Positions 423 to 43,135 of a stretch of 43,135 nt of DNA are shown here, in pieces (the stretch's first letter is position 1; every line of letters begins with the position of its first letter). A model generated the notes under the pieces. The model was not told the DNA's origin and did no database searches. It worked only from the letters and a program-made list of their open reading frames with translations. The stretch spans positions 1-43,135 of IMG/VR virus record IMGVR_UViG_3300045988_012292, one strand, 5' to 3'. Source of the DNA: a virus. The translations under genes were made by a program, and so were the position numbers.

Positions 423-629
423 TTACTCCGGCAGCCGCTCTGTTACAGGAATCCACCGCTGCTTCTCCCGAAGCTCGTCAATCTCCTTCTGGTCGCGCTC
501 GATCTGGTCGGCGGCCGCATACACCATTCGTATGCACTCGCCAATGTCACACGGGCACGTTACACATTCGTGCTTTCCGCAAAACCGCAGCGCCTTGACC
601 AGTTCTTCCGGCTTCAAATTCATATTCAT
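423..629 (-). CDS. Cys-rich small protein ending at the opening of a DUF551-like domain
   Basis: MNMNLKPEEL..CGKHECVTCPCDIGEC.. and ends RWIPVTERLPE-TAA. The start is ATGA-coupled to the PAPS-reductase stop. Confidence 0.7.
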   Translation of the reverse strand: MNMNLKPEELVKALRFCGKHECVTCPCDIGECIRMVYAAADQIERDQKEIDELREKQRWIPVTERLPE

Positions 630-1516
630 AACAGATCCTCCCGAAATTCTTCTAATACTTCCTGCCCTGGAAGCACATCATTTTCCATCCACCAGTTAAA
701 TATATCCAATCCATTATCGCCCCATCGCATCCCGCCGTCCATCTTGCCCCGGCGTCGGCGTTCCTCCAGCATCCGATCAAATGCCCGGATATACGCCAGC
801 TTGATCTTTGGGTATCTCTCAAATTCCATCTTCCGGTGCTTCCCGGCCATCGGGCAGCCGATACAGCCAACCCGTTTCCAACCGCAGGCGTAGAGTGGGT
901 TCATCGTGATCTTTTGTTCGGCGCAGTAGCCGAGTACGTCTTCGTCTTTCCAGTCAACAATCGGATTGACTGTCCGCGTGCCTTTCATCTGGCAGTTTTC
1001 CAGGAGCATTCTTCGCTCGTCGTTATCATCCATGAGGATGATCCGCTTGTCTTTGTCTTTGTTGATAGTCTCCATAATTCCACGCGACGCTTTCCGCCTT
1101 GCGGATTCTGCCCAGCGGACGCCGGTTGCGATAAACCGCCCTCTCCCTCCGGTTTCCTTGAGTTCAGCGCAGCAGTAGCGCACAAGCCGTGTCGGCGGCA
1201 TGAGCTTACGCGGGATAAGATTCCACATGGTTGTGTTCGTTCCATCCGGCTTTTTGTGGGTATCGATGGTGCATTTCACCCCCCCAAGTTCCAACTTCCA
1301 GAACATATCTTTCACGTGCCGTACCGTTTCCGGCGCGTCCGCTGTTGTCAGCGAGTGCAGCGCCTCAAACGGAATGCCGCTGTTCTGCACCAGCCTGAGC
1401 AGGCAGTCGGAATCTTTACCTCCAGAATAGGTAATCACAAGCGGCTTCTTGTAGAGCCTCTGGCTCATGTCGGATGCAAGCCGCAGCCGCTCCATCGCAG
1501 TCTGCTCTAAATCCAC
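626..1516 (-). CDS. Phosphoadenosine-phosphosulfate (PAPS) reductase family / DndC-like PP-loop enzyme
   Basis: PP-loop YSGGKDS, RYCCAELK, GVRWAESARR, NPIVDWKDEDV and a C-terminal GCIGCP cysteine pair. 296 aa. Start is GTG 1516 or ATG 1495. Confidence 0.85.
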   Translation of the reverse strand: MDLEQTAMERLRLASDMSQRLYKKPLVITYSGGKDSDCLLRLVQNSGIPFEALHSLTTADAPETVRHVKDMFWKLELGGVKCTIDTHKKPDGTNTTMWNLIPRKLMPPTRLVRYCCAELKETGGRGRFIATGVRWAESARRKASRGIMETINKDKDKRIILMDDNDERRMLLENCQMKGTRTVNPIVDWKDEDVLGYCAEQKITMNPLYACGWKRVGCIGCPMAGKHRKMEFERYPKIKLAYIRAFDRMLEERRRRGKMDGGMRWGDNGLDIFNWWMENDVLPGQEVLEEFREDLL

Positions 1517-1683
1517 ATCAACCCCGCCTTTCTCAGCCGCTCCACGCTCTTACACCGCTTCTTCGCGTCCGCAGTGTAAGCGTCGCGTCTCCGTTCGCTT
1601 CTCTCGCTGCTTTTCCGCAGTTCCTTGATCCCTTCTTCAGGATTTGCCCTCATGGCCTCCCTGATCAGTTCTTTCGGTTTCAA
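1507..1683 (-). CDS. Small basic protein, junction-repeat family copy A
   Basis: Probable TTG start at 1681-1683 (LKPKELIREAMRANPEEG...). The C-terminus RRRDAYTADAKKRCKSVERLRKAGL is shared with 3389..3592. It ends overlapping the PAPS-reductase start. Confidence 0.55.
   Translation of the reverse strand: MKPKELIREAMRANPEEGIKELRKSSERSERRRDAYTADAKKRCKSVERLRKAGLMWI
1519..1607 (-). repeat. Junction repeat copy A (precedes the PAPS-reductase start)
   Basis: ctccacgctcttacaccgcttcttcgcgtccgcagtgta is shared identically (39 nt) with copy B. About 90% identity over ~70-90 nt by eye. Confidence 0.85.
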
Positions 1684-1685
1684 AT

Positions 1686-2546
1686 TTATAGCAAATCCTC
1701 CTGCCAAAATTCGTTGAATTTCTTCCCTGTGATAATCGGCCTGCACCATTCACGTTGAAACCTTCGCCACGCGGCGTCCGTTTTCCCTTCTTCATCCCGG
1801 AAAAGCATTGCGTATGGTACAAACCCGGCCTGCATGGTCTGTGTCAGCCGCAGCTCCGCGTCCTCAAAACTGTCCCCAGCATATTCAACAAGGACATAGC
1901 AGCACATGGCGTGACTCTTTGGCCGGAACCCCGCAAGGCGTAGCTTTCGCCCCATCGCAACCAGAGGTTCCAGATCATCCTTTGTGTCGTATGCTGTGTA
2001 AAGCCGCTTTGGTTTTACCTCCCGCAGCAAATCCGCCTGCCATTGTTGAAGCAAGGACGGTTCCAGTCCTCCGGTGAAGATTGCAAAATGCTCCTGCCGC
2101 TTGAGCATTTCGCATACCGCCCGAAAGTGCTGCTCTGACGTTCCGAGAATGTTGTCGTCGAGGATATTCCAGCCATCCACGATCGGCAGCTCCCGAATCA
2201 CGCCATGTGCGCAGCGCGGAACCGAGCAGAACCAACATTCCTTCGTACAGCCGCGCGACGTGAAGATATAGCCGTCTCGGAGATACATTCCCGGCGTGAA
2301 ATCACCCATGCGGTCATCAAATGCCGGGCCTCCAACTTCAACCGGAACACCGAGGATTTGCCACGCATAGTAGAGATCTTCTGCACGCGGAATGTCCCAT
2401 GTGAAGGTTGTAGAGATGTGCACCGCTTCAACTTCAGCCTTGATACAATCTGCGATATTCTCGATTGTCGGTGCACCGAAGAACGCTAGCGTATCCGTAG
2501 GCGATGCAGCCGTCTTTCTTGGGAATACCCGCGCAATCCGATTCAT
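1686..2546 (-). CDS. Radical SAM domain protein
   Basis: TSRGCTKECWFCSVP contains the CxxxCxxC 4Fe-4S/SAM motif. 286 aa. Its ATG overlaps the TGA that closes junction-repeat copy B. Confidence 0.75.
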   Translation of the reverse strand: MNRIARVFPRKTAASPTDTLAFFGAPTIENIADCIKAEVEAVHISTTFTWDIPRAEDLYYAWQILGVPVEVGGPAFDDRMGDFTPGMYLRDGYIFTSRGCTKECWFCSVPRCAHGVIRELPIVDGWNILDDNILGTSEQHFRAVCEMLKRQEHFAIFTGGLEPSLLQQWQADLLREVKPKRLYTAYDTKDDLEPLVAMGRKLRLAGFRPKSHAMCCYVLVEYAGDSFEDAELRLTQTMQAGFVPYAMLFRDEEGKTDAAWRRFQREWCRPIITGKKFNEFWQEDLL

Positions 2547-2550
2547 TTCA

Positions 2551-2640
2551 GCAACCCCGCTTTCCGTAGTCTCTCCACGCTCTTACACCGCTTCTTCGCG
2601 TCCGCAGTGTAGGCGTCGCGGCTCCGTTCAACTTCTCTCA
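2551..2640 (-). repeat. Junction repeat copy B (precedes the radical-SAM start; has no start codon of its own)
   Basis: Encodes ..REVERSRDAYTADAKKRCKSVERLRKAGLLK-TGA in the +1 frame relative to the methyltransferase, whose own stop (2628-2630) lies inside the repeat. Confidence 0.85.
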
Positions 2641-3392
2641 CGTCTTTTCTCCCTCTGCAATTCTTCCGCCAATGCCTTGAAAATCGGATATGCCTGCTGC
2701 GGCACTACCGCGTTTCCGAGGCATTTAAGTCTGTCCACCTGATTGGGAATCCCATGAGCCACTCCATAAGGGCGGGGTTCGACTTCCCACCGCTTCCACA
2801 GGTCAGGTTTTTCCGCTCCTCCTCCGTGACGACCCCCGCGTCTCTCAGTGCCACCATCTGCCGGAAGTTGTGTGTTCCGCCGCACAGCGGCGCGCCCGTC
2901 GTTGGCCGCGGCCACGATAAAGATTCTCTCTCCCTTGTGCAGTCCGCCGACATCCCAAGCCGCAGAACTGTAAGCCCTTGCTTCGTAGCCGACGCCTTGC
3001 AGTTCGGAAAGGATTCCCGCAAGCGCAATTCGAACAAGTCCAGAAACGTTTTCACCGACAACGCAACGCGGGCGCAGCTCGGTGATAACTCGGAGCATCT
3101 CCGGCCAGAGGTATCGATCATCCCCTTTGCCCTTTTGCTTTCCAGCCACGGAGAAGGGCTGGCATGGGAATCCGCCGGAAATAACGTCAACTGTTCGTAG
3201 GCCTGTCCTCTCATAAAAACTCTCCTTCGTCAAAGTCCGGATGTCACGCCAGCGCGGCACATCCGGCCAGTGCTTTTCCAGCACTTTTGTTGGGTAATCT
3301 GCAAATTCGCATTGCCCAACGGTTGTAAATCCTGCCCATTTCGCAGCAAGATCAAGTCCGCCGATACCCGAAAACAAACTCAGATGCGTCAT
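2628..3392 (-). CDS. DNA (cytosine-5) methyltransferase
   Basis: Motif I LFSGIGG, motif IV GGFPCQPFS, motif VI GENV, motif VIII GERIFIVA, and EPRPYGVAHGIPNQVDRLKCLGNAVVPQ (motifs IX/X). 254 aa. Confidence 0.9.
   Translation of the reverse strand: MTHLSLFSGIGGLDLAAKWAGFTTVGQCEFADYPTKVLEKHWPDVPRWRDIRTLTKESFYERTGLRTVDVISGGFPCQPFSVAGKQKGKGDDRYLWPEMLRVITELRPRCVVGENVSGLVRIALAGILSELQGVGYEARAYSSAAWDVGGLHKGERIFIVAAANDGRAAVRRNTQLPADGGTERRGGRHGGGAEKPDLWKRWEVEPRPYGVAHGIPNQVDRLKCLGNAVVPQQAYPIFKALAEELQREKRRERS
2705..3214 (-). CDS. Nested alternative-frame ORF (169 codons) inside the methyltransferase gene; WPxP / EWLMGFPxxWT-like sequence
   Basis: ATG 3212-3214 has AAGGAG (3222-3227) exactly 7 nt upstream. 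It reads MRGQAYEQLTLFPADSHASPSPW..TSGRRCSEL..WPRPTTGAPLCGG..NPALMEWLMGFPIRWTDL. Expression is unproven. Confidence 0.4.
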   Translation of the reverse strand: MRGQAYEQLTLFPADSHASPSPWLESKRAKGMIDTSGRRCSELSPSCARVALSVKTFLDLFELRLRESFPNCKASATKQGLTVLRLGMSADCTRERESLSWPRPTTGAPLCGGTHNFRQMVALRDAGVVTEEERKNLTCGSGGKSNPALMEWLMGFPIRWTDLNASETR

Positions 3393-3592
3393 TTCAGCAG
3401 CCCCATTCTTTTCAATCTCGCTACACTCCGTGACCGCTTTTCCGCGTCCGCAGTGTAGGCGTCGCGGCTCCGCTCAACTTCTCTCGCCCGATATTCCGCC
3501 TGTTTTGCTTCCTCGTATTCCAGATACGGCGCGCACCTGGCGTGACATTCCGCTGACCGCCCCGGACAGTCCCTCTCACACGGCGGCTTCAC
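3389..3592 (-). CDS. Cys-rich small protein, junction-repeat family copy C
   Basis: MKPPCERDCPGRSAECHARCAPY.. then AREVERSRDAYTADAEKRSRSVARLKRMGLLK. Its TGA overlaps the methyltransferase ATG. Confidence 0.75.
   Translation of the reverse strand: MKPPCERDCPGRSAECHARCAPYLEYEEAKQAEYRAREVERSRDAYTADAEKRSRSVARLKRMGLLK
3393..3487 (-). repeat. Junction repeat copy C (3' end of gene 3389..3592; precedes the methyltransferase start)
   Basis: cgcgtccgcagtgtaggcgtcgcggctccg(c/t)tcaacttctctc is near-identical to copy B. The catttcagca(g/a)cccc start-codon context is also shared with B. Confidence 0.8.
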
Positions 3593-3870
3593 CCCGCCAC
3601 CTCCACAACCTCATCCGCTCGCAGCAGCACCTTTTTCCCGGCCCGCTCGAAGATGTAGCCCGTGCTGTTATAGCTCTTCCGCTTCACCGCGTGGATCATC
3701 TCGCCCAGCCTTGGCCGCAGTTCCTTGTAGATCCTCGGAACCTTCACGCAGATCACCGTGACGGCAATGTTGTCATCCTTGTACCATTCCTCCGAACACT
3801 GTTCGCTGCAAAAGGAATTGAAGATCGCGCCCTTGCGCAGAATTTCTTTCCCGCACTGCCTGCACTTCAT
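3589..3870 (-). CDS. Zinc-ribbon protein, hypothetical
   Basis: MKCRQCGKEI...FCSEQC. 93 aa, with 4-nt overlaps on both neighbours. Confidence 0.7.
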   Translation of the reverse strand: MKCRQCGKEILRKGAIFNSFCSEQCSEEWYKDDNIAVTVICVKVPRIYKELRPRLGEMIHAVKRKSYNSTGYIFERAGKKVLLRADEVVEVAG

Positions 3871-4214
3871 GCTTCCCGTCCTCCTTCTCTGGCCGCTTCA
3901 TACTCCATGTGATCCTGCACATAGGCGTGCAGATAGATGTTCAATACGTTCACGGCCTTTCGGATGATAGCATCCATCTCCTTTTTCCGCAGTGAAAAAA
4001 TTCCCTTTACCGTAATTTCCGGTTCCAGTCCGCCCGTAATCACGATCTTTGTTTCTTCCGCTTTGTCTGCTTCATCAAACAAATTCTCCGGCCTTGTGAC
4101 GACCATCCGTGGCGGATATTGATTGCACTTTGCCTCTGCCGCCAGATCCAAGTCTCCGCACAGCTCACTGAAATCTAAAAATTCTGCGTCGAATACATCC
4201 ATGATTCTTCCCAT
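3867..4214 (-). CDS. Hypothetical early protein
   Basis: 115-aa ORF with SD AAAGGGGACGAGGCT before the ATG. It is the first gene after the 375-bp non-coding block. Confidence 0.7.
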   Translation of the reverse strand: MGRIMDVFDAEFLDFSELCGDLDLAAEAKCNQYPPRMVVTRPENLFDEADKAEETKIVITGGLEPEITVKGIFSLRKKEMDAIIRKAVNVLNIYLHAYVQDHMEYEAAREGGREA

Positions 4215-4792: not shown

Positions 4793-5241
4793 ACCTCCCG
4801 CACGTCGATCCCATACATCGACCGCATAAACTTCCTGTTTCGCAGATATTCCTTCGTCCGTGTCGGCCCGCTCTTCACGTCCTCCACGATCTTCTCGCCG
4901 GACACTTCCCGGATGTACGAAAAGTCCGCCGTGTACCGGATCGCGCGTACCCGCTCCCCGGTCTCCGTCACATAAGATTCCTGAATTGTGAATTGCGGCT
5001 GCAGCCGTAGATCGCGAATCTCCCCGGCGCGCAGCATCAGCAGCAGCTCGTCATATCGCCGCGCTTCCTTCTGGCTGTCAAAGTGAATCCCCCCGCGCTC
5101 CGCCTTCTGGTTCTGATACTTGGCCCTTTTCTGTTCTGGTTCCGGCCTTGCCTGCGGCATCTGCCCCAGCACCTTCTTCGCGTACAGATCCCGCATTCCG
5201 GCCGGCATGTCCGCCATGCTGTCAAATCGCAATCCGCTCAT
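4789..5241 (-). CDS. DUF1064-like protein (PD-(D/E)xK-type nuclease fold family)
   Basis: From MSGLRFDSMADM...: IHFDSQKEARRYDELLLMLRAGEIRDL..YTADFSY..VEDVKSGPTRTKEY matches the DUF1064 pattern. SD GGAAAGGACGGGAG. Confidence 0.7.
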   Translation of the reverse strand: MSGLRFDSMADMPAGMRDLYAKKVLGQMPQARPEPEQKRAKYQNQKAERGGIHFDSQKEARRYDELLLMLRAGEIRDLRLQPQFTIQESYVTETGERVRAIRYTADFSYIREVSGEKIVEDVKSGPTRTKEYLRNRKFMRSMYGIDVREV

Positions 5242-5258
5242 GGTCTCCCGTCCTTTCC

Positions 5259-5516
5259 TTATCCGATCACCAGCTCCGGATTCATCCGCAGTATCGTCAC
5301 CTTCGCCGTCTGGTGGTATTCCGGCCGCGTCCACTTGAATCCCCAGTGCTTCGCCGCGAGAAACAGCGCCGCCGTCTCATCCGCGCACCGCACATCCACG
5401 GTCTGCCCGGCGTATTGCACACGGAAATACTTCCCTCCGGTATATTCCGGCTGCCGGACAATCTCCGGCTTCTTCGGTCTGCACGCCGCCGGCGCCTCGT
5501 TATATCGCGTCGCCAT
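5259..5516 (-). CDS. Hypothetical early protein
   Basis: Start taken at MATRYNEAPAA (ATG 5514-5516), overlapping the end of the upstream membrane protein. 85 aa. Confidence 0.6.
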   Translation of the reverse strand: MATRYNEAPAACRPKKPEIVRQPEYTGGKYFRVQYAGQTVDVRCADETAALFLAAKHWGFKWTRPEYHQTAKVTILRMNPELVIG

Positions 5517-5703
5517 CCTCGTCGCTTCCTCCCATCGCATAGCCGAGGCACGCCACCGTCGCGAACGCAAGCAGCACGCCGCCCCAGTAAATCCCGAACC
5601 CAACGTAAAAGCCCATCGCCATAAAGCAGCCGCCGCTCGCGATCAGTGCCAGCCTCCGCAAGACCCGTACCCTCGCGTTGTCATGTTCTTTTTTCGAGAT
5701 CAT
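5500..5703 (-). CDS. Small membrane protein
   Basis: 67 aa with two hydrophobic segments (LALIASGGCFMAMGFYVGFGIYWGGVLLAFATVACLGYA). Confidence 0.65.
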   Translation of the reverse strand: MISKKEHDNARVRVLRRLALIASGGCFMAMGFYVGFGIYWGGVLLAFATVACLGYAMGGSDEDGDAI

Positions 5704-5900
5704 ACCTCATCCCGCTCCTTCTCTTTTTGTAAGTAATACCGCAGCTTGCCCAGCCGCGTCATGCTCTCCGCCGCCCGTTCCCGCAGCTCTTTCTTGTCGT
5801 GGAACAGCTCAATGGCCTCGGCCTCCGCAGCCTCCGCACAGATGATCGCGGCAATCAGGTCGCCAAATTGTTGCTCATTCACCCGCAGCGTGTAGTGCAT
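5700..5900 (-). CDS. Hypothetical early protein
   Basis: 66-aa ORF in the operon series with a helical, charged composition. Confidence 0.6.
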   Translation of the reverse strand: MHYTLRVNEQQFGDLIAAIICAEAAEAEAIELFHDKKELRERAAESMTRLGKLRYYLQKEKERDEV

Positions 5901-6078
5901 CAGCGTCCCTCTCTTTCTTCACATAGAACTCCACGCCCGGGAACATCGCCCGCAGATACCTCAGCTTCAGCTCCGTCGCCGCGATCCGCTTTTCCTCGAG
6001 CGTCAAATCGTCAAAGCGAACCAACTGCCCGTTTTTCGTCACATAGCTCTCCGTCCGGATCACCTGTTTTTTTCGCAT
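5875..6078 (-). CDS. Hypothetical early protein
   Basis: 67-aa ORF with SD GGGAGGGAGCAGA before the ATG. Confidence 0.65.
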   Translation of the reverse strand: MRKKQVIRTESYVTKNGQLVRFDDLTLEEKRIAATELKLRYLRAMFPGVEFYVKKERDADALHAAGE

Positions 6079-6120: not shown

Positions 6121-6351
6121 TTACTGCTCCTTCTTCTGTCCAGCCGCCACAGCCACCATGCCCTGCATGAAGATCAGCGCCTTCTCTTTTTGTTCCGGCG
6201 TCAATTTTCTAACAGTCTTGCTCCATTCGCCATTTTCCTTCTCGTTGATTTCCACGAGCCGGTCTGCCAGTTTCGCGATCAGCGCCTGATCGTAACCCCG
6301 TAGCTTCGGGAATATCTCACTCATCCACGCCGAATAATCCAACTGTCCCAA
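6121..6351 (-). CDS. Small protein, 'EQK...FMQG' paralogue 1
   Basis: TTG start with GAAGGAGG 8 nt upstream. The C-terminal TPEQKEKALIFMQGMVAVAAGQ resembles 6355..6498 and 9521..9637. Confidence 0.6.
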   Translation of the reverse strand: MGQLDYSAWMSEIFPKLRGYDQALIAKLADRLVEINEKENGEWSKTVRKLTPEQKEKALIFMQGMVAVAAGQKKEQ

Positions 6352-6354
6352 GCC

Positions 6355-6498
6355 TTATGCCTCCTTCCGCTCGCACATCAGCTTTGCCGCCGCGGCCACG
6401 CCCTGCATATAGGCGATCATGACCTCGATCTGCTGCGCGTTCATGTGCTTCATCTCGTGCAGCACACCCTCGACTTTCTTCTTCTGTTCTTCCGACAT
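6355..6498 (-). CDS. Small protein, 'EQK...YMQG' paralogue 2 (47 aa)
   Basis: Hand-read: MSEEQKKKVEGVLHEMKHMNAQQIEVMIAYMQGVAAAAKLMCERKEA. SD GAGTGAGGTGAGGG before the ATG 6496-6498. Confidence 0.55.
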   Translation of the reverse strand: MSEEQKKKVEGVLHEMKHMNAQQIEVMIAYMQGVAAAAKLMCERKEA

Positions 6499-6514
6499 AA
6501 CCCTCACCTCACTC

Positions 6515-6543
6515 TTGTCATCCCGCGCCGCCCATGCTATTCT
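6515..6543 (+). promoter_or_regulatory. Sigma70-type promoter (TTGTCA-17-TATTCT, TGc extended -10)
   Basis: Read directly. It is 26/29 identical to the promoter at 7837..7865. It faces the plus-strand ORF 6577..6840. Confidence 0.6.
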
Positions 6544-6576
6544 GATAAGCAGGGGCGATGCGCATTATTTTTGCCT

Positions 6577-6840
6577 ATGGACTTACCAAATCTGAAGCTC
6601 TATTCACCCGAAGATGAATACACCCCATACAAGGAACTGCATATCCTCTGCCAGCACTATCACAAGGCGGAAACCGTCTATTTCCAACTTGTCATCCGTT
6701 CTGCCGAACAGTACGGATATGTGTTTAATGGCTGCGACGATCAGTCCGGCGACCACTTGTGCAAAGAGTGCCGCCGTCTGTCCTGTTCACAGTTTCTTGA
6801 ATCATTCCCGAATCTAAAGCTGCTCCACGCTGTCGATTGA
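6577..6840 (+). CDS. Plus-strand moron, hypothetical 87-aa protein
   Basis: MDLPNLKLYSPEDEY... lies on the opposite strand inside the early operon in a lower-GC patch. It has its own promoter. The SD is weak and the 3' end overlaps 6814..7200 by 27 nt. Confidence 0.5.
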   Translation: MDLPNLKLYSPEDEYTPYKELHILCQHYHKAETVYFQLVIRSAEQYGYVFNGCDDQSGDHLCKECRRLSCSQFLESFPNLKLLHAVD

Positions 6841-7200
6841 CGGCACATCCGAATAAACCTTCTCGACGCAGCGCATCGCCTCTTCAATCGTTTCCAAATA
6901 ACAGTCCTCGCCGTCCGGCCATCCGTCCACCGCAAACTGCCGCATCGCCCCGACGCTGTGATACCCGCGCAGCGTGCGCAGTGAGATCATGCTGTTTGCC
7001 GGATGATCCAGTTCTCCATCGTTTTCCATCGCTTTGAGCAGCGGATCATCGATCCCATGTACCCGGTTCATGCACCCAAGCGCCAGCCGCAGTGCCGCCG
7101 TATAGTTCGGAACCAGTATCGTGCTCTCGCCGAACCGCGTCATTCGCTCGTTGTGTCCGATCAGGCTTGCCAGCAGCTTCGCCTTTTCCAGTTCTGTCAT
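6814..7200 (-). CDS. Hypothetical early protein
   Basis: 128-aa ORF with SD GAGGTGAGAGGGAA before the ATG 7198-7200. Confidence 0.7.
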   Translation of the reverse strand: MTELEKAKLLASLIGHNERMTRFGESTILVPNYTAALRLALGCMNRVHGIDDPLLKAMENDGELDHPANSMISLRTLRGYHSVGAMRQFAVDGWPDGEDCYLETIEEAMRCVEKVYSDVPSIDSVEQL

Positions 7201-9900: not shown

Positions 9901-10344
9901 TTGAAACAACAACTTTGGGAAGTATGCCGCGACAAGAAAGATTCCGCAAATCCGCGTATCACCAACCAGCAGCTGGCCGAACGATCCGGCCTGTCCCAGA
10001 ACGCCGTCGGGCAATATCTCCGCGGCGAAACGCCGAACGCGCCGCTCTCCACGTTTGGCCCGATCTGTAAAATGCTTGGCGTCTCCGTCGACGAATACCT
10101 CGGGATCGAGCATCCCGCTCCTGCTTCTGACGCTTTGCAGGCCGTCCGCTTGGAGTGCGACCACTACAAGCGTGAGATCGAGCTGTATAAACGCTCCCTT
10201 CGCACGCACCGCATCGTCACTCTCATCCTCGTTCCCATCCTCGCCCTTGTCGTGATCTCGTTGGTCATCGATCTCCTCAACCCCTATGTCGGCTGGATTC
10301 GCGATACCATGTCCATTTTACGGGAGGTTTCCGTCTATGCCTGA
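9901..10344 (+). CDS. XRE-family HTH regulator with C-terminal transmembrane anchor
   Basis: TTG start with AAAGGAAAGGA upstream. HTH ITNQQLAERSGLSQNAVGQYLRGE, then a coiled segment, then TM IVTLILVPILALVVISLVIDLL. It overlaps the integrase start. Confidence 0.7.
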   Translation: MKQQLWEVCRDKKDSANPRITNQQLAERSGLSQNAVGQYLRGETPNAPLSTFGPICKMLGVSVDEYLGIEHPAPASDALQAVRLECDHYKREIELYKRSLRTHRIVTLILVPILALVVISLVIDLLNPYVGWIRDTMSILREVSVYA

Positions 10345-11782
10345 ACCACGCATTGCAGCCGCCTATATCCGCGTCTCAACCGATGACCAGATGGAGCTGT
10401 CCCCGGATTCCCAGATGGAGAAGATCCGGGAATACGCCGCGAAGAACGGCCTGCTCCTGCTCTCGGAATACATCTTCCACGACGACGGCATTTCCGGCCG
10501 GGCTGCCGAAAAGCGCCCCGGCTTCCAACAGATGATCGCCACCGCCAAAGACCCGTCCCATCCGTTTGATGTCATCATCGTCTGGAAGTTCTCCCGCTTT
10601 GCCCGCAATCAGGAGGAATCCATTTTCTATAAATCCATCCTGCGCAGCAAGTGCAAGGTCGATGTGGTGTCCGTCTCCGAGCCGCTGATCGCTGGCCCCT
10701 TCGGCAGCCTGATCGAGCGGATCATCGAATGGATGGACGAATTCTATTCCGTCCGCCTTGCGGAGGAAGTCAAGCGCTCCATGACCGTCAATGCAAAGAA
10801 TGGCACCCTGCAAGCTACACCATCCTTCGGCTACCGCGTAGAAAACCGGCAACTGGTCATCGTCCCGGAAGAAGCCGAGATCATCCGGGAGATCTTCCGG
10901 CGCTTCATCTCCGGTGATGCCATGTTTCGCATCGCGAAAGATCTGAGTTCGCGTGGCATCCGCACGCACCGTGGGAATCCCTTTGAAAACCGTACCATTG
11001 ATTATATTCTGAATAACCCCGTCTACCTCGGCAAGCTCCGCTGGACGCCGACCGGCAGGACACACCGAAATTTCAAGAACGAGGACAGCATCATCGCCGA
11101 CGCGCTGCACGAACCGATCATCGATGCCGAAACGTGGGACGCGGCGCAGGCTCGCTGTGCCGAACTAAAAAAATCCTATAAGCGCTACGGCAAGCCTTCC
11201 TCTGAGCGCAAGCACTGGCTGTGCGGTGTTGTCCGCTGCTCTACCTGCGGCGCGACGCTCATTTGGGCAAGTCCGCATTTTATGAAATGTAACAACTATG
11301 CGCACGGACGCTGCACGACCACCCAGCATATCGCCGTCGAGGCACTGGAAGAATCCTTCCTTGCCCAGCTTCAGCACGATTTGACGTTCGCGGAGTCTGT
11401 CGCTTGCGTTGTTCAAGCCGCAAAACCCGCTCATTCCGACCAGCGCTTGCAGCAGCAGCGTGCCCGTATCGTCTCCCGTATTGATCGCCTGCGTGAATCT
11501 TACTTAGACGGCGTCGAGACGCTGGAAACCTATAAAGCCGCCCGGCAGCAAATGCAAGCGCAGCTTGACGACCTCGACGCGCAAATTGCCGAATCCGCAG
11601 CCGTCCCCGTCGTCGATGCCGCCGCGCTGCTTCGAAATGCCATCGCCGCCGTCCTCGAAACGCTCCGTAGCCCAACAGCCACCGTTGCGCAAAAGTACGA
11701 ATCCGCCATGTCCATCATCGACCGCTGCACGTTCGACAAATCCCAGATGCTCCTCGCGATCTCTTATAAATTCATTTTCTGA
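10337..11782 (+). CDS. int: Large serine recombinase (phage integrase)
   Basis: AAAYIRVSTDDQ catalytic-serine motif, resolvase-like N-domain, recombinase domain, Cys cluster CGVVRCSTCGATL..MKCNNYAHGRC and a C-terminal coiled coil. SD GGGAGG. Confidence 0.9.
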   Translation: MPEPRIAAAYIRVSTDDQMELSPDSQMEKIREYAAKNGLLLLSEYIFHDDGISGRAAEKRPGFQQMIATAKDPSHPFDVIIVWKFSRFARNQEESIFYKSILRSKCKVDVVSVSEPLIAGPFGSLIERIIEWMDEFYSVRLAEEVKRSMTVNAKNGTLQATPSFGYRVENRQLVIVPEEAEIIREIFRRFISGDAMFRIAKDLSSRGIRTHRGNPFENRTIDYILNNPVYLGKLRWTPTGRTHRNFKNEDSIIADALHEPIIDAETWDAAQARCAELKKSYKRYGKPSSERKHWLCGVVRCSTCGATLIWASPHFMKCNNYAHGRCTTTQHIAVEALEESFLAQLQHDLTFAESVACVVQAAKPAHSDQRLQQQRARIVSRIDRLRESYLDGVETLETYKAARQQMQAQLDDLDAQIAESAAVPVVDAAALLRNAIAAVLETLRSPTATVAQKYESAMSIIDRCTFDKSQMLLAISYKFIF

Positions 11783-42707: not shown

Positions 42708-43135
42708 GCCTTTCCCTCCATTTCCGCCAGCGCCTTTTCAGCTCCCTCTTGGTTGAGGAACCAATCTATCCCGCATCTATCTCCCCATGCAGATTCAACA
42801 GGATACCCGCCAAAGTGTAAGACAACACGGCTTTTTGGTGTAATTGAAATTCCTTGCACTCTGACATTCGCAACGGTTTTGGATTCAATGTCCGGGATAT
42901 ACACTCTAGCGCCCACCTTACACGGCAAGACGATCACGCGCCCCTCTTGATCTGCCACGGCCAGCTCCCGCAAGCGCATCAGCGTCATGCCGTCGCCCAT
43001 TCTCAAAATTGCGTGCAGATTTGCCGCATCCTCCGGGGATAGTCTGCTGTCCTCATAGGCTGCGAGACGGTCAACAAAATCTGCCTGGTACTGCACTCCG
43101 CTGAAATTTACCCGCCAGTATCCGTCTTTGAAATA
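42704..43135 (-). CDS. Hypothetical early protein; 5' end wraps to 1..55 (148 aa in total)
   Basis: The frame stays open to the window end and continues at 40..55 to ATG 53-55. The ORF-track 'M' at 43096 is an internal GTG. Contains FVDRLAAYEDSRLSPEDAANL. Confidence 0.7.
   Translation of the reverse strand, partial: YFKDGYWRVNFSGVQYQADFVDRLAAYEDSRLSPEDAANLHAILRMGDGMTLMRLRELAVADQEGRVIVLPCKVGARVYIPDIESKTVANVRVQGISITPKSRVVLHFGGYPVESAWGDRCGIDWFLNQEGAEKALAEMEGKA
43096..43135. repeat. Terminal overlap copy 2 (identical to 1..40)
   Basis: Exact 40-nt match to the window start. Confidence 0.95.

Follow-up and report, generated by a model that had tools for sequence, protein, structure and literature searches.

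Several described systems bring variable genes together in arrays or at fixed positions. Integron arrays consist of tandem promoterless single genes, each preceded by a repeated sequence, and involve IntI, attI and attC hairpins. In T4-type phages, PeSLs, non-coding promoter-plus-terminator motifs found many times per genome, are short repeats between non-essential genes that provide homology for gene insertion, deletion and replacement, and exchange between neighboring direct repeats removes the gene between them. Phage accessory regions are positions flanked by conserved core genes at which variable genes, often with counter-defence roles, are concentrated (bioRxiv 10.1101/2023.04.06.535777), and phage mosaicism has been modelled as illegitimate plus homeologous recombination (PMC2327257). 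Here, we analyze the IMG/VR virus record IMGVR_UViG_3300045988_012292 (43,135 nt, referred to in full as the window), in which an element of ~100 nt occurs three times (copies A, B and C), each copy running into the start codon of an enzyme gene as an initial annotation had proposed. We consider it highly probable that the element corresponds to the last ~100 nt of a small conserved coding gene, SM67, where it encodes the second helix of a predicted hairpin, and that the extra copies are recombination scars from an unequal crossover that duplicated the border of a gene slot and stacked three enzyme genes. Sequence comparison places SM67 as the left border of this hypervariable slot for predicted DNA-modification enzymes in a temperate Oscillospiraceae-type phage.

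The locus is a clear case of already known phage mosaicism. Like accessory regions, it has a fixed position, conserved flanks (to the left SM67, in 55 of 59 loci, and to the right a gene of a family with the N-terminus MNLKPEEL) and a content that differs among close relatives, and its cargo includes DNA methyltransferases, classic anti-restriction cargo, with family assignments made here from sequence alone. In contrast to those regions, the borders are nucleotide-exact, formed by a stop/start overlap on the left and by a ribosome-binding site in the last cassette codons on the right, and as many as three cassettes follow one another, separated by duplicated fragments of the border. As in PeSL shuffling, short repeats supply homology for cassette exchange, and a hybrid of two neighboring copies replaces the gene between them in the relative L087/L015. 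The repeat is, however, a coding gene end with a coupling junction rather than a promoter-plus-terminator motif; most genomes have it once, its extra copies can be traced to one origin, and no promoter or terminator signal lies within any copy. A 7-nt microhomology join followed by reshuffling between diverged (75-97%) repeats matches the illegitimate/homeologous model, although a PHROGs search of the window revealed no phage recombinase, Red/Gam-like or other. The tandem array of single promoterless genes, each after a repeated sequence, resembles an integron. Unlike an integron, the slot region lacks a gene for an IntI-type integrase, the sole integrase being of the serine type and encoded on the other strand (10286-11782). 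The repeat has neither the form of an imperfect palindrome nor an attC-like fold, and homologous and microhomology recombination account for the junctions. How an accessory-gene hotspot grows can be read at this locus with unusual clarity; related phages still contain both parental sequences along with several intermediate and derived forms. It may serve as a system for asking whether coupling constrains cassette joins and how often direct-repeat scars delete or circularise cassettes.

The window contains a three-copy direct-repeat family. In a repeat search, this family spans 97 nt (A 1510-1606, B 2543-2639, C 3389-3485), with copies A and C showing 75% and 80% identity to copy B, respectively, and all other repeat families in the first 6 kb are 26 nt or shorter. 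A sequence model of the element found exactly three copies in the whole 43-kb window, all located in one operon on the minus strand and spaced 846 and 1033 nt apart. Copy A meets the start of a PAPS reductase gene, copy B that of a radical SAM gene and copy C that of a C5 cytosine DNA methyltransferase gene; repeat search, alignment and sequence model all confirm the three copies. The downstream identities assigned initially agree with domain matches to PF00145 (E = 1.3e-35) and TIGR00675 (score above its cut-off) for the methyltransferase, to phrog_9298 (E = 2.2e-17, plus a CxxxCxxC motif) for the radical SAM enzyme and to PF01507 (E = 2.6e-17) for the PAPS reductase. Alignment likewise recovers the previously noted 39-nt run identical in A and B (1540-1578 and 2573-2611), the B/C core, which is the identical 24-mer CGCGACGCCTACACTGCGGACGCG (B 2597-2620, C 3443-3466), and the stop/start overlap CTGAAATGA at 2543-2551 in B and 3389-3397 in C. 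The three-copy arrangement is no assembly artefact, since an independent metagenome contig from ENA (L215) shares it at 98.8% identity.

The three copies meet their downstream genes in different ways. In copy C, the SM67 stop codon TGA (3389-3391) overlaps the methyltransferase ATG (3390-3392), and a GCGAGAG site is found at 3481-3487. The methyltransferase stop (2628-2630) falls within copy B. Copy B had been described as lacking a start codon, which is incorrect: GTG at 2639-2641, preceded by AGGGAG at ~6 nt (anti-Shine-Dalgarno pairing -9.0 kcal/mol), opens an open reading frame (ORF) of 32 codons whose stop TGA (2543-2545) overlaps the radical SAM ATG (2544-2546). In copy A, the stop TAG (1507-1509) sits 7 nt beyond the PAPS reductase GTG (1514-1516). 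On the far side of the array, the start of the gene d68 overlaps the PAPS reductase stop (ATGA). A pattern scan found no promoter-like or terminator-like site within any of the three copies. No inverted-repeat pair flanking the copies was found and the copies are not scattered, so they do not qualify as mobile repeats of the miniature inverted-repeat transposable element, insertion sequence or repetitive extragenic palindrome type. The coordinates of the array are collected in Table 1.

Table 1. Genes, element copies and scars of the slot region, in window coordinates.
Feature	Position	Strand	Remarks
115-aa ORF	3867-4214	-	upstream of 93-aa ORF
93-aa ORF	3589-3870	-	directly upstream of SM67
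SM67, 67 aa	3389-3592	-	left border of variable slot; Cys4(+His) knuckle, then helical hairpin
Copy C, primary copy	3389-3487	-	codons 36-67 of SM67 (helix 2)
Cassette 1, C5 cytosine DNA methyltransferase, 254 aa	2628-3392	-	Pfam, PHROG and NCBIfam matches
Copy B with junction tag	2543-2648	-	element 2543-2641; holds 32-codon GTG ORF 2543-2641
Cassette 2, radical SAM enzyme, 286 aa	1686-2546	-	phrog_9298
80-codon ORF spanning copy A	1507-1749	-	from ORF list
dX' scar	1601-1689	-	94-96% identity to region after PAPS reductase in ten loci
Copy A	1507-1607	-	joined to dX' at GCGAGAG 1601-1607
Cassette 3, PAPS-reductase-family (DndC-like) enzyme, 296 aa	626-1516	-	PF01507, phrog_424, NCBIfam
d68, 68 aa, right-border gene of dX family	423-629	-	N-terminus MNMNLKPEEL..

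SM67, with a product of 66-67 aa, is the gene to which the element belongs. To follow it in relatives, we compared 63 related IMG/VR contigs (59 loci from a search, L008 and three found later) and located the element with an nhmmer profile over all loci. The full-length SM67 homologues, present in 55 of the 59 search loci, are 70-100% identical, and the 24-nt core was found in 34 IMG/VR contigs. A single GTDB genome, a metagenome-assembled genome of the Oscillospiraceae, contains SM67, and a large protein collection holds 326 relatives, none of them named and none with a Pfam domain. Among GenBank phages, BLAST searches with the region and with SM67 returned one unannotated 7.9-kb faecal fragment and otherwise weak Faecalibacterium phage matches only. 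The AlphaFold2 model of SM67 (predicted local distance difference test score 80.8) consists of a short Cys knuckle and two helices, residues 21-36 and 38-62. A single copy of the element is present in 56 of the 63 contigs, nearly always as codons 36-67 of an intact SM67. Seven contigs possess two copies (L036, L042, L052, L054, L063, L087 and L008), three copies are found only in the window and L215, and in L090-L093 the lone copy is a scar without an intact SM67. The initial annotation had named a repeat seen only as the translated end of a small gene as the observation that would speak against its proposal; this holds in most relatives but not in the multi-copy ones. Because the element usually occurs once, as an ordinary gene end, it represents a partly duplicated gene end and not a module dedicated to mobility or regulation.

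SM67 itself has a modular structure: the Cys-knuckle N-terminus is, in some relatives, swapped for unrelated sequence or cut by in-frame deletions while the C-terminal helix, encoded by the element, is retained (P0131, P0134, P0180, P0191, P0147, P0164 and P0195; L008, L086, L088 and L089). The gene directly upstream of SM67 also varies across L036-L093 (about 5000-6000) and encodes an ASCH-domain protein, members of two N6/N4 methyltransferase families, a RusA-like protein, the 93-aa ORF or others. With variable neighbors on this side too, SM67 is a conserved island between two variable segments.

The slot to the right of SM67 holds single, double or triple arrangements of five enzyme families, or none. 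At the same nucleotide after the primary copy, a C5 methyltransferase begins in 10 loci, a radical SAM enzyme in 10 (plus five truncated), a PAPS reductase in 21, a second methyltransferase-like, weakly Dcm-like family (c51) in seven and the unclassified gene c213 in one. Five slots are empty, with the right-border gene directly after SM67. The initially proposed association with variable downstream genes is thus borne out, five enzyme families starting at the same nucleotide after the element. On the left, the SM67 stop overlaps the ATG of any slot occupant (ATGA or TAATG, the latter before PAPS reductase in relatives). On the right, the methyltransferase (in relatives), the radical SAM enzyme and the PAPS reductase all end in (Q/R)EDL(L/I), and the corresponding DNA, GGAGGAT(C/T)TG.TATGAATTTGAAACC, combines a Shine-Dalgarno site with the overlapping start of the next conserved gene. 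This motif (GGAGGATYTG.TATGA) occurs at 626-641 and 1686-1701 in the window and in L066, L081, L045, L077 and others. The PAPS reductase of the window ends in REDLL, encoded by GGAGGATCTGTTATGA (626-641), and its radical SAM enzyme ends in QEDLL, with the last codons holding GGAGGAT, the Shine-Dalgarno site of the right-border gene. As the last cassette codons also provide the next gene with its ribosome-binding site and start, the right border reaches into the cassette coding sequence. The right-hand gene of the slot belongs to the d68/dX/c0 family, with the N-terminus MNLKPEEL.

Some slots show further variation. The c213 cassette (L060:6201-6920) ends in ..CGGAAAGCGGGGGTTCTGAAATGAATTTG; a short copy of the last ~25 nt of the element is thus present on the right as well, representing another border duplication. 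In L037, L044, L058, L061 and L079 (about 6200-6980), only the first radical SAM codons follow SM67 (47-aa ORF), with PAPS reductase ~560-770 nt further on, and these loci contain decayed cassettes inside the slot. The methyltransferase exists in size forms of 251-256 aa and 286-324 aa (window 2628-3392 compared with L038, L062, L063, L081 and L091), which differ in the segment linking the catalytic core to the GNAVVP motif, a presumed target-recognition region.

The junctions of the extra copies identify the sequences from which they were built. The 86-nt stretch between the radical SAM stop and copy A (1601-1689) shows 94-96% identity to the sequence that immediately follows PAPS reductase in ten relatives (L041, L051, L053, L059, L070, L072, L077, L082, L092 and L093). 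This dX' scar corresponds to the first ~29 codons of native dX (MNLKPEELIREAMRANPEEGIKELRKSSE..), with the ATG mutated to ATA (1687-1689). Copies A and C had initially been described as C-termini of ORFs with unrelated N-termini, but the N-terminus of A is more than unrelated sequence, being the 5' fragment of the post-slot gene. With the breakpoint marked by a slash, the native dX junction reads ..GGAAAAGCAGCGAGAG/TACAAC, the SM67 junction ..TATCGGGCGAGAG/AAGTTGAACGG and the copy A junction ..GGAAAAGCAGCGAGAG/AAGCGAACGG. The heptamer GCGAGAG is common to dX and SM67 at the breakpoint, and both parents are intact elsewhere (L077, L053 and others). Copy A is an exact recombinant of the two sequences and hence arose by crossing-over of dX with SM67 at GCGAGAG. 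Within it, a 1-nt deletion (AAGTTGAACGG to AAG-CGAACGG) brings the element in frame with the dX' fragment.

Copy B carries a related junction, the dX-derived tag AAAAGACGTGAGAG at 2635-2648. The tag, in the form AAAAG(A/C)(C/A)G(T/C)GAGAG, follows the methyltransferase codons for QRE in copy B, in the second copy of L063 and in the L090 copy. The window methyltransferase accordingly ends in QRE/KRRERS at the copy B junction, compared with QREDLL in other alleles. The common dX tag indicates that the A-, B-, L063 and L090 copies derive from one ancestral event, which in copy B and the L063 and L090 copies was followed by a deletion. Two further fusions are independent of this event: in L042, a 5' fragment of PAPS reductase is joined to the element at CTGCGG, and in L091-93, ten radical SAM codons are in frame with the middle of the element. 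Junctions without any element also exist. Radical SAM leads directly into PAPS reductase at CTGT.ATG in L036, L059 and L090, and the methyltransferase leads into PAPS reductase in L038, L055 and L062 (..GAAGAACTGGGAGGAAGCAATGG) with a Shine-Dalgarno site of its own at the junction; reading the DNA of these three junctions ruled out a trimmed element as their source. A metagenome pattern scan with the junction tag AAAAGMMGYGAGAGAAG, which is of low complexity, matched 120 unrelated environmental contigs, none of them with the element. The small ORFs at 1507-1749 and 2543-2641 should be annotated as chimeric scars and not as independent genes.

These junctions are consistent with the following sequence of events. 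Homologous recombination in the conserved slot borders would swap cassettes between phages. An unequal (illegitimate) crossover at the 7-nt GCGAGAG would connect the 5' part of dX of one genome to the middle of SM67 of another genome or a sister molecule. The product would be a tandem slot duplication with a scar in the middle, cassette 1 - dX'::'SM67 - cassette 2, the partial SM67 inside the scar constituting the extra element copy. The resulting direct-repeat copies would then serve as substrates for more homologous exchange and for deletion, and the array in the window (methyltransferase - B - radical SAM - A - PAPS reductase) was probably put together from two parts, one L036-like and one L052-like. 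In the scars, the native stop/start overlap is preserved too, and they probably keep the downstream gene translationally coupled.

The slot of the window is a mosaic of segments found in different relatives. From SM67 through the methyltransferase, it is 100% identical to L087. Methyltransferase, copy B and radical SAM show 99.5, 100 and 97.9% identity to L036, and radical SAM, scar, copy A and PAPS reductase show 97.9, 100, 100 and 99.4-99.9% identity to L052 and L054. Each copy likewise finds its closest matches in other phages. Copy C is 100% identical to that of L087 and 99% to that of L041. Copy B is 100% identical to the second copy of L036 and 96.9% identical to the primary copies before radical SAM in L046 and L059. 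Copy A is 100% identical to the second copies of L052 and L054 and 96.7% identical to the primary L077 copy, behind which lies a PAPS reductase 93.7% identical to that of the window. L087 (= L015) contains the same methyltransferase and PAPS reductase with one hybrid copy between them, composed of the B 5' end and the A 3' end, and no radical SAM gene. This identifies exchange between copies B and A as the route by which a relative lost radical SAM. In L008, an A-type scar is located ahead of c51 instead of PAPS reductase. The 3' half of the element exists in two allele classes, EKRSRSVARLKRMGLLK (C) and KKRCKSVERLRKAGLLK (B), which by their distribution recombine freely and are not bound to one downstream gene. 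The recombination linker for cassette shuffling proposed initially is retained insofar as the element provides a homology patch for cassette gain and loss, but only as a by-product of recombination.

The element evolves as ordinary coding DNA with freely variable synonymous sites, judging from 46 unique SM67 genes. The ratio of nonsynonymous to synonymous polymorphism per site (pN/pS) is 0.26 in the element half and 0.27 in the 5' half, and pS in the element half (0.42) is above that of the 5' half (0.28). Third codon positions vary most, and several lysine/arginine and arginine-codon swaps take two to three nucleotide changes. Relative to primary copies preceding radical SAM in other phages (e.g. 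L059), copy B shows only synonymous differences. The intact appearance of this supposedly untranslated copy is due to recency and exchange, the second of two explanations offered initially, while the first, selection at the nucleotide level, is contradicted by the pN/pS and pS values. An element acting in cis as a nucleic-acid signal under such selection, whether an RNA leader or structure or an attC-like recombinase site, is already largely refuted and we give it next to no credence. A small hairpin around TACACTGCGG does appear in single-sequence folds, and RNAalifold returns -7.1 kcal/mol with z = -3.3 against column shuffles, but the consensus contains only a 9-bp hairpin with a covariation term of 0.7 kcal/mol. 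The copies themselves fold no better than shuffled sequences (z = -0.45, -0.87 and -1.14), Rfam contains no match to the element at E<=1, and the two candidate hairpins show no compensatory pairs and pairing equal to shuffled controls, so the RNA element suggested initially finds no confirmation. The only recombinase found is the large serine integrase, 7 kb away on the opposite strand. Homogenization of the three copies within the genome by gene conversion, also suggested initially, is similarly implausible. It would account for the long identical runs (39 nt in A/B, 30 nt in B/C), but the copies are only 75-80% alike within the window and 97-100% identical to copies that precede the same downstream gene in other phages, which argues against gene conversion, and copies C and B bear different 3'-half alleles (EKRSRSVARLKRMGLLK and KKRCKSVERLRKAGLLK).

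Recombination scars could nevertheless be kept for a function. Retention of copies A and B as functional paralogues, small proteins consisting of the SM67 C-terminal helix and maintained for a peptide activity, would fit the copy B peptide, which is identical to the K-type SM67 C-terminus with all differences from L059 primary copies being synonymous, and the database entries in which the helix is fused in frame to several other N-termini (P0131, P0134 and P0191). Protein searches find only in-frame cases by construction, however, and are for this reason not counted as evidence of selection. Scar ORFs are also rare (3 clusters against 326 for SM67) and lost in relatives, and half of a predicted helical hairpin would be unlikely to fold alone, making this explanation very unlikely. 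A role in translation is a stronger candidate. Translation through the element to the overlapping stop/start would re-initiate at the downstream gene, and the extra copies would be kept because this portable coupling adaptor is needed, which is compatible with an origin as scars. All five cassette families begin at an ATG overlapping the element stop, and within the element, Shine-Dalgarno pairing ranges from weak to moderate (-4.7, -7.9 and -7.9 kcal/mol for methyltransferase, radical SAM and PAPS reductase) compared with -10 to -12 kcal/mol for SM67, u93 and d68. In four scar lineages, different small changes render the element frame translatable: a start-creating C-to-T change (GCG to GTG) with AGGGAG upstream in the B-type, a 1-nt deletion that fuses dX' to the element in the A-type, a 1-nt deletion that fuses a methyltransferase remnant to the element in L090, and an in-frame fusion of radical SAM codons to the element behind GGAGGG-N5-ATG in L091-93. 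On the other hand, PAPS reductase is also found without the element upstream in at least three other contexts, behind the radical SAM right border (GGAGGATCTGTAATGG) or behind methyltransferase or c51 3' ends with their own GGAGGA. Reading the L042 partial copy by hand reveals no start that could be used in the element frame. A-type scars have lost the dX' ATG, which reads ATA in the window and GAA in L008, and the independent lineages are few. A coupling role of the element is plausible but unproven, and we rate retention of the copies for this reason as possible, at somewhat below even chances. A stronger version, in which the SM67 3' end with its overlapping stop/start is a selected portable expression adaptor that lets bearer genes drop by homologous recombination into the slot of any SM67 phage and become coupled at once, appears unlikely. 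If correct, it would explain the independent frame-restoring and start-creating mutations together with the nucleotide-exact junction of five gene families, and repeated unequal crossovers would build integrase-free arrays of counter-defence enzymes.

Several points weigh against a slot-border duplication as the source of the extra copies. The chronology is a reconstruction from extant sequences and not from the parental genomes of the actual event. As A- and B-type scars share one junction, the stacking step rests on one ancestral event, together with two other independent partial fusions (L042 and L091-93). No phage recombinase (RecT, Erf or Red-like) was detected in the early region of the window by a PHROGs search, and SM67 has no Pfam or PHROG family match and no relative in the PDB (zero Foldseek matches for the AlphaFold2 model). 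Most of the related contigs, moreover, come from one IMG/VR dataset (3300045988), a narrow sampling.

The remainder of the window is that of a temperate phage, encoding the serine integrase on the plus strand, a repressor-like gene, an endolysin and an HNH endonuclease. Positions 1-40 and 43096-43135 are identical and contig L215 runs from position 1 straight into 43135, so the window represents a complete genome assembled as a circle (or a circular permutation) whose ends overlap. The methyltransferase gene also contains a 169-aa ORF in an alternative frame (2705-3214, minus strand) that matches phrog_1008, annotated as DNA methyltransferase (E = 1.4e-12). Dual coding was considered and rejected for this gene: across nine methyltransferase alleles, pN/pS is 1.33 in the alternative frame and 0.34 in the methyltransferase frame, indicating that the 169-aa frame is not coding here. 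In L215, the ENA gene caller called the alternative-frame ORF in place of the methyltransferase.

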